64,000 nt of DNA from a virus: IMG/VR virus record IMGVR_UViG_3300045988_172855. The stretch is one strand, 5' to 3'. The notes beneath the pieces were generated by a model that worked only from the letters and a program-made list of their open reading frames with translations, was not told the DNA's origin and did not search any database. Below, piece by piece: positions 16,419 to 21,315 of the stretch. How positions within the stretch are numbered: the stretch's first letter is position 1; every line of letters begins with the position of its first letter. The position numbers were made by a program, and so were the translations under genes.

Positions 16419-19400
16419 TCAACTTAAAACAGTAAATGACGTATTCAAATTTGTTTGTAGAACATATTCTTGTCTCCACTTGTCAAATTGAATATATCCA
16501 TCTACCAATAGAAGATTGTTTTTACTTTCTCTCAAAAAGTCGGCATATTCAGCGAACAAATCAGGGAAAACAATTACATTTATAAATTCGTAATTACTTT
16601 CTAAAACTATTGTTGCGAACAATCCTTTCTTCGATTTACGCTCGATAATATCAATAACAAAACCTCCGATAATCGCACACTTAGAGCGATCGTTGCCATC
16701 CCAATATTTCAACTCACTTACATCAAAATATTCTGCATCTGAAAATGCATCGTCTGAATGATACTCCTCAATTAGACGTTTATAATCAAAAGACGCAAAT
16801 CCGGATAACTTCTTCTGTTGTAACGTCCACCACCAATCGTTTTTCTCCTTTCTTGCTTTTATAATGTTAGTTAAAAGATCCTTATCTTCAAGAATTTTTA
16901 CTCTCTTATTCTCACGATAAGACTCTATTAATCTCAATCGTTCGTGTGGTGCAGTGATGTTTTCAAGTTTATCGAACGCTCCACTATAAATGAGATTTTC
17001 AATAACTGACTTATTGACTGGCGAACCTTTTACAACACAACGATCAATAAATTCATCTAATGAGAAAAATTCACCATGTTTTTCTCGTTCATTGTGAATA
17101 AACTCTTGAGCTTTATCTCCACATTGCTTCACTGAATTCAAAGCCCAATACATACTACTTGTTTTGACATCAGAAACAATGTTTATATCACTTTTATTTA
17201 TATCAACAGATTTAATTGTAATATTACCTAACTTCTGAATTTCATTGATGTAAAACGGATAATCCTCAATCTTCGCATGTGAGAATGTTACAGACCAAAA
17301 CTCAATGGGATAATGAGCTTTCAGCCAAATGCAGTTATATCCATTTCTCGAGTACGCAATTGCATGACTAAAATTAAAAGCATACTTACCAAACTCCTCC
17401 ATCTGTTTCCAAAGATCTTGAGCATACTTTTCTTCAACTCCAAAACGCTCAACATAACCTTTTACAAATTTATCGCCAAAACTCTTTAATTTAGATGTAA
17501 TTTTTTTACCCATGCAATTATGAGCTAAAATTCCACCTACAAAAGCGTACGGGCTTCTATCAGATGTCATTGTAAAATCATAAACAGGAAGTTTACCAAC
17601 CCTATCGTAAGATTCTACTTTCAAAAAACAGAATTCTCTTTTTAAAATGTTTTCAAGATATTTACTTCTTCCACATCTTTTCAATATTTTTTCAGCTCTC
17701 CTATAAGTCAAGTCAAAAGGACGATTGATTCCGTAATTCAAAATATTCTTTCCTAACAACTCATTGCAATTATATCCGGAATGATCAATGAGATTTTTAA
17801 TAATAGGTTGCCAAATTTCAAAAGGTATTTTGTATTGACTATAAGAATCTAGATCAAAATCCTCTAACTTAAAATTAAATCGTTCTTTAATTTTTGTCGA
17901 ATATGGTTCGAGCATTGCTTTGATCTTCAAAGCGTCTTCAATAGAAGAAATTCCTATATCATAATATTTCTCAGGATATTCTGCAAAACTTCTTGAATTT
18001 GTTGTAGTTAAAACTCCAAGACAACTAAAAAGAATATTTATCTGATCAATCAATTCCTTTGATTTAGAAGAATAACCTATTAATAACCCTCCCTTTTTAG
18101 AAGCAACATAGCCATCAAAATCAATTAATTTCCCAAGAACAAATAATTGACATTCTTCATTTAAAGAAAAAATGTAGTCAGGTAACCTTTTTTCATCTGA
18201 TTTAACAAATTCAAGACCTAAATCTGTAACAACAGAGTCTTTTATCTTTAAGCTCGTACATCCTGTATATTGATTATAATATTCTTTAGGCTCTTCTCGA
18301 ACAAATTCTTTATAACATCTTTTAAATTCACTCAATTCTGACTCATCTTTATTAACAAAATTACACGAACCAATAGTTCCTATAGATCCTTCTGTCAATA
18401 AAGCTATCATTAAATAAAGTTCTTCTTTAGATTTAGATAGTGTTCCAAATCTTCTACTAAGATCTTTGTAAACATAGTGTCCTACACAATCCTTAGCTTC
18501 TAACCAACCAACTTCTGTTAATAATTTATGATCCGGAGTGCATGTAAAGTGATTGTCTCCTTGCATATTCAATTTAATACACTCCTTTTCTTTTTTATAA
18601 ACTCTTCTATAAACCTTATTCCATTTGAAACAACACTCTTTTTCATTATACGTAGTAACGGAAGTAAATGGTTTTATATTTTTAATTTTAACAGCTCCAT
18701 CAGGAGTCCAAAACAATTCTTCACCCCAAATACATTTTCTCACTGAATCTGTCGTTTCTAGGTCAAATCCTGCCAAATGCTGACATAATCTCATTATATC
18801 CTCCTGAGTAATCAATAATCCTAAATGTGGACGAAGAATATCTTCTGCTCCTATAGGATATTCGATTTCACTTTCACCTCTCTTTCTCAAGATATATTCA
18901 TTGTGATAATTATTTTCAATTGGACCAGGACGATATAATGCTGCACATAATCCCATTTCATCGAGACTGTGTGGTTTCATCTGTACACAATACGAAGAAA
19001 GTCCTTTTGCGCCAAAATGAAAAACGTCACCTAAATAACCTTTTTCAATGTACTCAAAAACAATTGGATCGTCTAAAGGAACGTCATTATAAAGATCTAA
19101 TTTGATACCACGATTTTTCTCAATCAATTTTAAAATATCAGCTAATTTATCAAGCTGAGCAATTCCTAAAATATCTTCTTTCAAAAAACCAGCTTCTTCA
19201 ATTTCTGCACCTTCCCATTCTGTCACTACCAGTCCATTAGACTCTCTAACTGGCACCCATTGTGCTGACGATTTCTCATCAGGATATACGACTGTACCAC
19301 ATGCGTGAATTGATGCTGATTTAGGAGAATTCAAACAAACCATAACGTCATTGATTAATTCTGTATGACTTTTAACAAACTCTCTTAACTCTGTATCACT

Positions 19401-19703
19401 GCAGATAACTCTGAAAAAATCTTCAATACTTTTCATACCCTCCTCGTCTCTCAATTTAGAAGTAATTCTTCTAACTGTTCCTATCGAAATACCTTCACAA
19501 CGAGCAAGATCTGTAATTGCAGCTTTTAATTGCATTGTCGTATATGTTCCAAGTGACGTCACTTGCGTTATACCAAATCTTTTTTCCATATACTCTTTAA
19601 CTCGAGGGCGTTGTTGGCCTTCAAAGTCTGTATCAATATCAGGCATCGATCCGAGTTGTCTTATTTCTTGAACTTCTTTTTTAAGACTTTTAATCGTTAT
19701 CAT
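16419..19703 (-). CDS. dnaE: DNA polymerase III alpha (DnaE-type), C-terminal piece: palm/fingers/OB, interrupted by an intein
   Basis: SMPDIDTDF catalytic aspartates, HACG, LKEDILG, YRPGP, (intein), MGKK, AFNFSHAIAYS and a C-terminal OB-like IIGGFVIDI. It begins exactly where ORF 19690-21315 stops matching DnaE. Confidence 0.85.
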   Translation of the reverse strand: MITIKSLKKEVQEIRQLGSMPDIDTDFEGQQRPRVKEYMEKRFGITQVTSLGTYTTMQLKAAITDLARCEGISIGTVRRITSKLRDEEGMKSIEDFFRVICSDTELREFVKSHTELINDVMVCLNSPKSASIHACGTVVYPDEKSSAQWVPVRESNGLVVTEWEGAEIEEAGFLKEDILGIAQLDKLADILKLIEKNRGIKLDLYNDVPLDDPIVFEYIEKGYLGDVFHFGAKGLSSYCVQMKPHSLDEMGLCAALYRPGPIENNYHNEYILRKRGESEIEYPIGAEDILRPHLGLLITQEDIMRLCQHLAGFDLETTDSVRKCIWGEELFWTPDGAVKIKNIKPFTSVTTYNEKECCFKWNKVYRRVYKKEKECIKLNMQGDNHFTCTPDHKLLTEVGWLEAKDCVGHYVYKDLSRRFGTLSKSKEELYLMIALLTEGSIGTIGSCNFVNKDESELSEFKRCYKEFVREEPKEYYNQYTGCTSLKIKDSVVTDLGLEFVKSDEKRLPDYIFSLNEECQLFVLGKLIDFDGYVASKKGGLLIGYSSKSKELIDQINILFSCLGVLTTTNSRSFAEYPEKYYDIGISSIEDALKIKAMLEPYSTKIKERFNFKLEDFDLDSYSQYKIPFEIWQPIIKNLIDHSGYNCNELLGKNILNYGINRPFDLTYRRAEKILKRCGRSKYLENILKREFCFLKVESYDRVGKLPVYDFTMTSDRSPYAFVGGILAHNCMGKKITSKLKSFGDKFVKGYVERFGVEEKYAQDLWKQMEEFGKYAFNFSHAIAYSRNGYNCIWLKAHYPIEFWSVTFSHAKIEDYPFYINEIQKLGNITIKSVDINKSDINIVSDVKTSSMYWALNSVKQCGDKAQEFIHNEREKHGEFFSLDEFIDRCVVKGSPVNKSVIENLIYSGAFDKLENITAPHERLRLIESYRENKRVKILEDKDLLTNIIKARKEKNDWWWTLQQKKLSGFASFDYKRLIEEYHSDDAFSDAEYFDVSELKYWDGNDRSKCAIIGGFVIDIIERKSKKGLFATIVLESNYEFINVIVFPDLFAEYADFLRESKNNLLLVDGYIQFDKWRQEYVLQTNLNTSFTVLS
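17517..18734 (-). mobile_element. intein with LAGLIDADG homing endonuclease inside dnaE
   Basis: aa 324-729 of the ORF. Block A CIWGEELF, block B CTPDH, LAGLIDADG motifs LMIALLTEGSIG and LFVLGKLIDFDGYV, and terminal GILAHN followed by +1 Cys. Exteins rejoin as DSVRK|CMGKK, matching the conserved DnaE RRAMGKK. Boundary codons were checked on the DNA. Confidence 0.85.
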
Positions 19704-21315
19704 AATCTAATAATATATCTCCTTCTTTTAATTCACCTGCTTTAACTATCATCTTTTCTTCGTTTCTAAAGATACGAACAAAACTTGTACAAGGTATAAT
19801 AATAGGTGATGAACTTTCTTCGTTAATGATAACCTCTTCAATCTTATCGTGACGTATCAAACGACCTGTTGTTAAGAATCTTTCAAATAGTAGATCGTAA
19901 TCAAGAGGATTAATATAATTCAATCCTAGTAAATACGAAATCAAACATCCACAAGCTGAACCACGACCAGACCCAATTAGAATGTCTTCTTTCTTACACC
20001 ACTTTACAATGTCTCTAAGCATTAAAAAATAGTCGACTACTTCACCATCTTCGATTACCTTCATCTCTTTTTCAAGTCTCTCAACAACTTCATCTTCAGA
20101 ATAATTTTCAAGTATCTCAGGATGTTCTTCGAGTCCTTTGATTATGAGATCTTCAAACATAGCAATATTATCTTCATATTGTAAAGCCTCTTCGTCAGTC
20201 ATGTAATATACAGGCATGTGTCTATTTTGAGTCTCTATTACAAAGTTACATTCAAAAGAAATTTCTTTCAAATTTTGAACAGCTTTTTCAAATGTATCAA
20301 AAAACGCCTCATCGTCTCCGAACAACTTACCAAGCTCTTCAAAATATTCTTGATAATTTTTCATATATTGATTATCACTTTCATAAGTAACGACCTTCGC
20401 TAAGGTATTCATTTTTCTCTTAATAGGAGACCATTCTTTTTCAACATAATACGCATCACACATTGCAACCGGATTCATTTTACTGTCAAAAAACTTTTTC
20501 AAATTTTTCAAGTAAAATTCATCACGATCATCTTTTTCGTATTCAACTGTATCTAATTGATAAAATGAAATAATTTTCTTGAGTTCTCTTGGAATCTTCG
20601 TATAATCAATTGTTTTAGGATCCCATATAAAAATCAAACCCTCTTCACTCTCAAGAATATCTTTTTCTGTTACATATTCTGTATTAGTCTTGTTCATCAA
20701 TTCATTTAGATGTAACAAATTCTCCCAGCCTTTTTGATTTTTAACAAATGCTTTGATTGTGTAACGAATATCGTTTACTTCATCGGAAACCTTAATCTCC
20801 AAACCTTGAATAGCTCGTATTCCATTTTTCTGACACGCAGTCTGAAATTTCATTGCTGCAGCAAGTGTACCTTTTTCACACAAACCTAAACTAGTGATCC
20901 CTAAAAATTTAGCTTTCTTACACCATTGATCGTATAGACACATTCCATTCATCAATTCGAACGGTCCATGAATACCAAGATATGTATCTATATAAAGACT
21001 TTCGTCTACCAATTTAGCTCTACCGATCCATTTTACAGGTTGTAGCTTTACAGACTCTTCTTTACCTTTTTCTAAAGCATACCAAACAGATCCAAAGCAA
21101 AAAATATAGTAATCGTATTCAGTTCTATCACACGCCCAATTAAAGTGTTCATCAAAATAAACACCTCTTTCATTTTTATCCCACTTAAACGGTTCAAAGA
21201 GTTGATAAACTTTATCGTTTATATCAATTAAAAATTCATCTTCGTCTTCTAAAACTTTATATTCAATAAAATTGTCTTCTAAATATTGTAGAAGTTCGGC
21301 AAACAATTCCCTCAT
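19690..21315 (-). CDS. dnaE: DNA polymerase III alpha (DnaE-type), N-terminal PHP-domain piece, a separate ORF
   Basis: IGSGRGSACGCLISYLLGLNYINPLDYDLLFERFL matches DnaE up to the ERFL motif. About 60 non-DnaE residues follow, then TAA at 19690-19692. It overlaps the downstream piece by 14 nt (ATGATAACGATTAA). Confidence 0.8.
   Translation of the reverse strand: MRELFAELLQYLEDNFIEYKVLEDEDEFLIDINDKVYQLFEPFKWDKNERGVYFDEHFNWACDRTEYDYYIFCFGSVWYALEKGKEESVKLQPVKWIGRAKLVDESLYIDTYLGIHGPFELMNGMCLYDQWCKKAKFLGITSLGLCEKGTLAAAMKFQTACQKNGIRAIQGLEIKVSDEVNDIRYTIKAFVKNQKGWENLLHLNELMNKTNTEYVTEKDILESEEGLIFIWDPKTIDYTKIPRELKKIISFYQLDTVEYEKDDRDEFYLKNLKKFFDSKMNPVAMCDAYYVEKEWSPIKRKMNTLAKVVTYESDNQYMKNYQEYFEELGKLFGDDEAFFDTFEKAVQNLKEISFECNFVIETQNRHMPVYYMTDEEALQYEDNIAMFEDLIIKGLEEHPEILENYSEDEVVERLEKEMKVIEDGEVVDYFLMLRDIVKWCKKEDILIGSGRGSACGCLISYLLGLNYINPLDYDLLFERFLTTGRLIRHDKIEEVIINEESSSPIIIPCTSFVRIFRNEEKMIVKAGELKEGDILLDYDND

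Follow-up and report, generated by a model that had tools for sequence, protein, structure and literature searches.

In the virus recorded as IMGVR_UViG_3300045988_172855 in IMG/VR, a gut Bacteroides-type phage, the alpha subunit of DNA polymerase III (DnaE) is encoded by two overlapping genes, and the break between them, at the junction of the motifs LLFERFL and SMPDIDTDF, is real and conserved among related phages. We favor, with a probability of about 75%, the reading that the two products form a two-subunit polymerase, and that a relic of a Hint (intein) domain left at the broken ends can no longer splice but most likely stays in the enzyme and contributes to keeping the halves together. 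The whole stretch of DNA that was analysed, 64,000 nucleotides (nt) long, is called the window below. Its relevant features are as follows (aa, amino acids; ORF, open reading frame; in motifs, a slash between residues marks a junction and letters in round brackets are alternatives).

19690..21315, minus strand: gene of the DnaE N piece, 541 aa, with the N-terminal domain, the PHP domain, the beginning of the palm as far as LLFERFL, the relic tail and TAA
19873..19893, minus strand: LLFERFL, the final canonical DnaE motif of the N piece, invariant in the alignment of relatives
19693..19872, minus strand: tail, residues 482-541 of the N piece, TTGR plus a putative 56-aa Hint relic, block B region
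19690..19703, minus strand: 14-nt overlap of the two ORFs, ATGATAACGATTAA, with the ATG of the C piece inside the final codons of the N piece
19650..19703, minus strand: head, residues 1-18 of the C piece, MITIKSLKKEVQEIRQLG
19623..19649, minus strand: SMPDIDTDF, the catalytic Asp motif of the palm, uninterrupted in the window
16419..19703, minus strand: gene of the DnaE C piece, a 1094-aa precursor (688 aa without its intein), with the remaining palm, the fingers and the HhH domain
17517..18734, minus strand: LAGLIDADG intein of 406 aa within the C piece, VRK/CIWGEE...TCTPDH...VYDFTM...GGILAHN/CMGKK

Both ORFs and the split between LLFERFL and SMPDIDTDF had been proposed in an initial annotation of the window, and its coordinates and sequence were reproduced here. 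The N piece runs through LLFERFL into TTGRLIRHDK...KEGDILLDYDND and stops at TAA (also written LLFERFL-TTGR-LIRHDKIEEVIINEESSSPIIIPCTSFVRIFRNEEKMIVKAGELKEGDILLDYDND-TAA); the tail terminates as ...ELKEGDILLDYDND, which is the canonical break point of split inteins. The C piece starts with the head MITIKSLKKEVQEIRQLG and then passes directly into SMPDIDTDF. Its frame is +1 relative to that of the N piece, a TAG stands two codons before its ATG, and the position of this ATG within the end of the N-piece gene suggests translational coupling. Membership in the DnaE family is indicated by the Pfam domains PHP, DNA_pol3_alpha (in two halves), DNA_pol3_finger and HHH_6, together with the intact SMPDIDTDF, and DNA_pol3_alpha is cut exactly at the break, the N piece covering profile positions 9-98 and the C piece 100-260. 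Comparison with unsplit relatives, which read ERFLNEGRVGKSLPDID in Chryseobacterium phage MA9V-3 and ERFLNVGRIQKSLPDID in P0104, sets the foreign material at a tail of ∼56 aa and a head of 18 aa. The head length agrees with the initial annotation, whose count of ∼60 foreign tail residues is slightly too high since TTGR corresponds to the NPER/NxGR of unsplit DnaE. A megablast search of the DnaE locus against phage records gave no match.

The same break was found in Cbastvirus phages, namely Cellulophaga phage phi13:1 (with phiST and phi19:2) and Tenacibaculum phage Larrie. In phi13:1 and Larrie an adjacent gene pair is annotated 'DNA polymerase III alpha subunit', with gaps of 1 and 2 nt and differing frame offsets, and the GenBank records of Cbastvirus phages already annotate both genes, without comment. 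Among 5.8 billion protein clusters, 755 homologues of N-piece size were found, the best ∼100 of which have the same tail type; homologous N pieces of 510-553 aa occur in more than 100 metagenomic clusters, and many of the tail-bearing ones lie on contigs of 100-108 kb. Three states can be distinguished across 80 viral loci: unsplit without insert, the window-type split, and a large 'long clade' of splits with a tail of 80-95 aa and a head of ∼33 aa. Two independent contigs, L006 and L007, have the window-type split with the identical 14-nt overlap. Long-clade halves either overlap (ATGA) or lie 1.3-2.2 kb apart; the spacer then holds either a gene for a PIF1-type helicase or one for a DNA methylase together with NUMOD4-HNH endonuclease genes. 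Other relatives show frame offsets of +1, +2 or 0 and gaps of 1-148 nt. Such varying gaps, frames and intervening genes are explained neither by sequencing error nor by one conserved frameshift. Thus the frameshift (real or from sequencing) that the initial annotation had listed among its possibilities is rejected by these comparative data, and its suggestion of a genuine two-subunit polymerase is borne out: the split is shared by Cbastvirus phages and by more than 100 metagenomic clusters, and in distant relatives other genes, 1.3-2.2 kb in all, separate the two halves.

Profile comparisons connect the tail to inteins by way of the long clade. On the tail side, the long-clade insert reads ERFL(L/V)PER-(A/C/G)GL...IIGEDIE..YVEV.LE.G..L.ID.DA.L.V.R.G....VYADEL.EGDDILFDN.D.LFT..E up to the stop codon, and on the head side MKV..V........V.D.FVD.GYLQG..G/SLPDVD. 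The five best matches of the long-clade profile in the PDB are all inteins (KlbA, E 0.002; Pab PolC, E 0.008; PI-PkoII; TFIIB; Aes123 PolB1), the alignment spans block B and continues across the break into block F, and 10 of the 17 long-clade members match Pfam Intein_splicing (best E 7.8e-5). When 48 diverse window-type tails were compared with the centre of the long-clade relic, hhalign gave a probability of 97.7% (E 2e-12). The profile of the window-type (short-clade) tails itself has the TFIIB intein as top PDB match (E 0.011), and inteins account for 6 of its 18 matches.

A profile built from natural tail sequences only was compared with 1.84 billion representative proteins and gave 115 matches at E <1e-3. 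Apart from DnaE pieces, its matches include, with E 1e-6 to 1e-4, proteins that have a genuine TxxH split-intein N half as their end, for example the ribonucleotide reductases (RNRs) P0182, P0221 and P0214, and also P0171, P0195 and P0184. These genuine N halves lie at the ends of fractured RNR and polymerase genes and typically finish as ...IEFEDGNTYEFTYNHKLLVYRNGEEIWIRCDELKEGDDIININE before the stop codon, the same stopping point as in the window (...FVRIFRNEEKMIVKAGELKEGDILLDYDND and stop). In an AlphaFold2 model the tail alone forms a beta-meander of five strands with a predicted local distance difference test score (pLDDT) of 81-89 in the core, and inteins are 9 of the top 11 Foldseek matches to this model, none of them significant. 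On the strength of the profile links, which lead from the tail to the long-clade relic and from there to genuine inteins, the window tail is homologous to Hint and the break sits in a decayed split intein, one of the possibilities that the initial annotation had considered. The head is the leftover C side of the relic, from which blocks F and G and the terminal HN are gone.

The LAGLIDADG intein of the window was used as an internal positive control for the features of an active intein. At intein position 1 the relic has Leu (...ERFLTTGR/LIRHDK), compared with Cys in the LAGLIDADG intein, and no conserved Cys or Ser occurs anywhere in the short-clade tails. At block B, P-C-T-S occupies the T-x-x-H position (T replaced by P, H by S), where the control has TCTPDH and the long clade x-x-D-A. 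Blocks F and G are absent from the relic of the window, in contrast to VYDFTM in the control, and the C-terminal end is ...RQLG/S rather than ILAHN/C, so that the +1 Ser is the only element kept; long-clade relics end in GG/S, HG/S or HA/S, not HN/S. Judged from these residues, the window relic fails four of the five defining features of an active intein, and since it has lost the nucleophile, Thr and His of block B, both blocks F and G and the Asn at the end, no protein splicing should be possible.

This comparison also bears on how the tail had been read before. The segment CTSFVRIF had been likened to block A with its Cys1; in our alignment PCTSFVRIF falls at the TxxH position of block B, and the supposed Cys1 is not conserved, as relatives read KSSDF, KSTDF, GNTF, EGS or EGTVV instead. 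The head, which had been likened to the start of a C-intein, is too short to accommodate blocks F and G, and a low-confidence model of a contiguous relative shows it as a helix instead of the first C-intein strand. The remark that the pieces are too short for a Hint fold and that no HN precedes the Ser agrees with the total of 74 aa and the end LG/S.

Rare contiguous relatives, P0265 and P0154, have the relic in frame within a single unsplit gene. P0265 (L138 3001-7527; 1508 aa, found on 3 contigs with DnaB, primase and ligase genes as neighbours) reads ...LRIVRDNNIIYINASKLENGDVFSGNNIVSKIQEIVKEVVTAGSPPDID..., and its stretch equivalent to the window head is NNIVSKIQEIVKEVVTAG. P0154 (L140 3001-6774; 1257 aa) is of the long type, with Cys1 present, no TxxH and the end GKP/SMPD. 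As these contiguous relatives lack the splicing residues, the relic must remain in their mature enzyme, and by comparison the relic of the window is probably retained in the mature polymerase. The initial annotation had reasoned that uninterrupted relatives with the same insertion would mean neither a split nor splicing; the two relatives do speak against splicing, whereas the split stands as the rule in the metagenomic clusters.

The tail is under purifying selection, with a ratio of nonsynonymous to synonymous substitution rates (dN/dS) of 0.10-0.26 at dS ∼0.7-1.2, compared with 0.05-0.11 for the upstream core; for the head the ratio is 0.16-0.36, over just 18 codons. Moreover, the tail pattern R..(E)..I.A..L.EGD..I..Y is kept among sequences that are only 25-35% identical. 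Going by this conservation, tail and head are not junk.

In the model that we favor, DnaE would consist of two chains, the N piece (∼63 kDa) and the C piece (∼79 kDa after excision of the LAGLIDADG intein). The overlapping genes would be translated, probably in a coupled manner, and the halves would assemble without a covalent bond. An ancestral split intein would have been located between ERFLxxxR and S(L/M)PDID, ∼8 residues ahead of the catalytic aspartates, and its surviving parts would be the block B region, as a beta-meander of four to five strands in the tail, and the short head. The split itself may derive from a 'fractured gene' in which a homing endonuclease separated the halves. By analogy with the split NrdA of phage Aeh1, tail and head may help to dock or position the two halves beside the catalytic aspartates.

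Several observations weigh against this model. Direct scores between the short clade and inteins are weak (E 0.01-0.1 by sequence, Foldseek E at least 0.6), and the Hint assignment of the window therefore leans partly on the long-clade link. In the model of P0265 the strands have pLDDT 76-84, and the head appears as a helix at low confidence only (pLDDT 48-60); Foldseek on this model aligns only the strands to inteins, and not significantly. For both models, the tail alone and P0265, inteins make up most of the low-rmsd Foldseek matches, none of which is significant. Contact between tail and head is something that we infer by analogy, and the large palm interface might be enough for assembly.

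This last point leads to the explanation in which the relic is neutral baggage, so that the halves meet solely via the native palm interface and tail and head have no role. It would account for the unequal shrinkage of the relic among clades, with tails of 43, 56 and 80-95 aa and just ∼35 aa retained in the clade of L008 and L009, and for the strong variation of head sequences. However, neutral material would not be expected to show a tail dN/dS of 0.10-0.26 at dS ∼1 or to keep the pattern R..(E)..I.A..L.EGD..I..Y at 25-35% identity, contiguous relatives retain the relic too, and the analogous split NrdA needs its tails (PMC3045599), so we regard neutrality as rather improbable. Tail and head could also be extensions brought by a MobA-like endonuclease cassette in the style of T4 genes 39/60, their likeness to Hint being a convergence in beta-strand composition. 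Relatives do show an endonuclease gene, a new head in which the SLPDI codons recur in diverged form, and a bypass-like insert, and the direct structural scores against inteins are not significant; yet the library-wide profile matches are bona fide split-intein N halves, aligned end-to-end with the same break point, and the alignment of the long-clade relic crosses the break into intein block F. As a substitute for Hint ancestry the cassette is thus quite unlikely, although cassette and intein origins of tail and head are mutually compatible.

The other explanations would restore a single chain. An atypical mini split intein that is still active and trans-splices the halves could point to the +1 Ser, and to Cys1 and the penultimate His in some long-clade relatives. 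The window, however, has Leu at position 1, no block B His, no blocks F and G and an LG/S end, its Cys is not conserved, the 74 aa in total are far below any known Hint domain, and contiguous relatives hold the insert without splice residues, which leaves such activity very doubtful. Alternatively, a single polypeptide might be hidden by an assembly indel, or arise by a programmed +1 shift within the 17 nt bounded by the C-frame TAG and the N-frame TAA. The overlap of the ORFs, the +1 position of the C frame and the recoding that seems to happen nearby in relatives fit this idea, but the junction is identical in the independent contigs L006 and L007, relatives have offsets of +1, +2 or 0, gaps of 1-148 nt or whole intervening genes, the head is conserved with its leading ATG, and neither a slippery motif nor a stimulatory hairpin is present at the junction (upstream fold, -2.2 kcal/mol). 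We consider this the least probable explanation, with hardly any chance of being right.

The putative recoding concerns ∼52 related viral contigs in which the C-piece gene is interrupted at the catalytic SLPD/ID codons by inserts of 7-43 nt; at SMPDID of the window no such insert is present. The inserts are located at L003 2454-2477 (in the record G001), L010 1086-1109, L008 6632-6670 and L009 6632-6671 and at the five single positions given below, and further insert-bearing loci are L087-L137. By type, with take-off and landing codons where two are given, they are:

Type A, 24 nt: AUC, UGA or UAA, and a CCCC-UUCG-GGGG hairpin; 18 viral contigs
Type B, 39-40 nt including the GAC/GAT codon: GAU, UAA or CAA, and a 9-bp hairpin; 29 contigs
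L017 7303-7310, 8 nt: GAC to GAC
L019 7289-7331, 43 nt, with hairpin: CCU to CCA
L033 6840-6846, 7 nt: CCG to CCG
L030 7279-7285, 7 nt: CCG to UCG
L038 6036-6043, 8 nt: CCA to UCG

Take-off and landing codons form cognate pairs in four of the seven insert types (GAU to GAC/GAU in 29 contigs, GAC to GAC, CCU to CCA and CCG to CCG). In the remaining types they are near-cognate (AUC to GUU/GUC/AUU/AGC; CCG or CCA to UCG), and the type A landing codons, GUU in 13 contigs, AGC in 3 and AUU and GUC in 1 each, are merely so. Across the inserts the take-off codon is followed by UAA, UGA or CAA. Inserts of 24-43 nt contain a stable hairpin, the loop of which is UUCG-type in types A and B, and those of 7-8 nt contain none; two type A variants differ by a compensatory change of one pair, from A-U to C-G. 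A 5′ stem-loop of 8-11 bp ends at the take-off site and is almost exclusive to insert-bearing loci; the equivalent stretch of the window folds with only -2.2 kcal/mol. In all cases, a skip from the first codon to just past the second restores exactly S-L-P-D-I-D-x-D, and the downstream ORF is intact over 656-1191 aa in the 31 loci with enough sequence, the rest being open to their ends. Readthrough of the inserts was considered and rejected: 27 of the 29 type B inserts shift the frame, and those of type A have one or two stop codons inside.

Immediately upstream of the inserts, L019 has a homing endonuclease gene of the GIY-YIG/NUMOD3 kind, and L030 and L038 have ones of the NUMOD4/HNH kind. 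In G001, the record nearest to the window (flanks 91-94% identical in nucleotides), an ORF of 152 aa lies between the halves (L003 1921-2379), followed by a diverged head, MITIKTLRKEDREEIRLGSLPDI, the 24-nt insert TAACCCCTTCGGGGGAAGTAAAGC straight after it, and then GATACAGATTTT (DTDF). This ORF has no match in Pfam, PHROG or PDB; its position, the re-coded head and the insert suggest an unrecognised homing endonuclease. Taken together, ribosome bypassing is the best reading of the inserts in the relatives, at odds that we put marginally above even. The identity between the window and G001 is a mosaic, with a tail dS of 0.014 (19693-19872), an upstream core dS of 0.48 (19873-20190) and a head dN of 0.34, which suggests recent recombination or gene conversion at the junction. 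The otherwise unsplit locus L059 has an insert of ∼745 nt at PPD/IDTDF (L059 6188-6912) with an HNH ORF inside and a sub-threshold match to group I introns (18.7 bits, E 0.034). Twelve odd loci gave no match to Rfam at gathering thresholds.

Each part of this arrangement resembles a described system. In the cyanobacterial split DnaE intein (Ssp/Npu DnaE-n and DnaE-c), the alpha subunit of polymerase III is likewise made from two genes, with half a Hint domain on each broken end and the break at the canonical site between blocks B and F. However, that intein is inserted at GFNK/SH rather than at ERFL/SMPD, its genes are far apart, and its catalytic residues are intact so that the halves are covalently spliced, whereas the window relic appears truncated, dead and retained. 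'Fractured genes', in which split inteins are combined with a free-standing homing endonuclease, include three DnaE loci (Dassa et al. 2009, PMC2677866). They share with the window the phage-like setting, neighbouring genes for the N and C parts of a replication enzyme and Hint halves at the break, and with its relatives an endonuclease gene between the two parts (GIY-YIG in L019, NUMOD4-HNH in L030 and L038); the tail profile of the window finds such split inteins in RNR genes. The fractured-gene inteins retain Cys1, TxxH and HN plus the nucleophile (PMC2677866), but the window has none of Cys1, TxxH and HN, and with a 14-nt overlap and no endonuclease or other gene between its halves it falls outside the definition of a fractured gene.

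For the proposed role of the relic, the closest parallel is the split NrdA (NrdA-a/NrdA-b) of Aeromonas phage Aeh1, which requires its tails in order to be active (Crona et al. 2011, PMC3045599). There too, an essential enzyme was fragmented by a mobile element and acts as two chains, without RNA or protein splicing and with extra tails at the break; the differences are that its tails arose together with the mobE insertion, no Hint origin being reported for them, and that the need for them was shown by experiment, whereas for the window we infer it. The layout of the insert-bearing relatives, with a C-terminal extension (CTE), an endonuclease, an N-terminal extension (NTE) and a bypass insert, is that of T4 gene 39/mobA/gene 60 (Manning and Atkins 2022, bioRxiv 10.1101/2022.08.31.505936), and in both the NTE contains a diverged copy of the target codons. 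One clade of the gene 60 family keeps the split and the extensions and has lost endonuclease and bypass (bioRxiv 10.1101/2022.08.31.505936), which is the state of the window. The T4 cassette differs in its target (topoisomerase instead of DnaE), in its phage group, in that its extensions are of no known origin, and in that the window has no bypass insert. We give even odds to the view that the window is a cassette-free allele of a gene-60-like mobile system targeting phage DnaE. Literature searches turned up no description of a naturally dead split intein in a phage DnaE.

If the favored model is right, a radiation of Bacteroidota phages, from marine Cbastvirus to gut phages, appears to have retained the break and lost the chemistry, and a trimmed Hint fragment would be a permanent part of a polymerase, beside its catalytic aspartates. 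Should the relic hold the halves together, it would be a natural, minimal (∼74 aa) heterodimerisation module made from a non-splicing split-intein fragment. For annotation, adjacent 'DNA polymerase III alpha' gene pairs in these phages are not pseudogenes. The insert-bearing loci amount to dozens of natural variants of a gene family that may depend on programmed bypassing, a requirement otherwise represented by the T4 topoisomerase alone. If they do depend on it, their phages would obtain active polymerase only via ribosome hopping, the Hint-derived tail and head would correspond to the CTE and NTE of T4, and split inteins, gene fracture and translational bypass would be joined in one evolutionary series. 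Bypassing, for long an isolated phenomenon, would also become testable in a new host group, the ribosomes of which reportedly make little use of Shine–Dalgarno pairing.

Among neighbouring genes, those flanking the split in phi13:1 are QueD, QueE, GTP cyclohydrolase I, MazG and an ATPase. In the long clade, a PIF1/RecD-like helicase gene of 440-460 aa lies between the halves in L026, L027, L034, L036, L039, L041, L043, L044 and L054, and other long-clade phages have a DNA N6/N4 methylase gene at that position.

Inteins also occur elsewhere in these polymerases. G001 is without the LAGLIDADG intein, its site reading VRKAMGKK; the intein is thus polymorphic and probably still mobile. P0265 has an additional HNH-containing intein-like insert at GFNK/SH, the site of the cyanobacterial split DnaE intein. 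The N pieces P0063, P0065 and P0074 (662-675 aa) have an extra mini-intein with full catalytic residues (C...HN/S) in the motif GSGRG/SAGS, and when this site is added to the others, at least four sites of the polymerase have been invaded by mobile elements.

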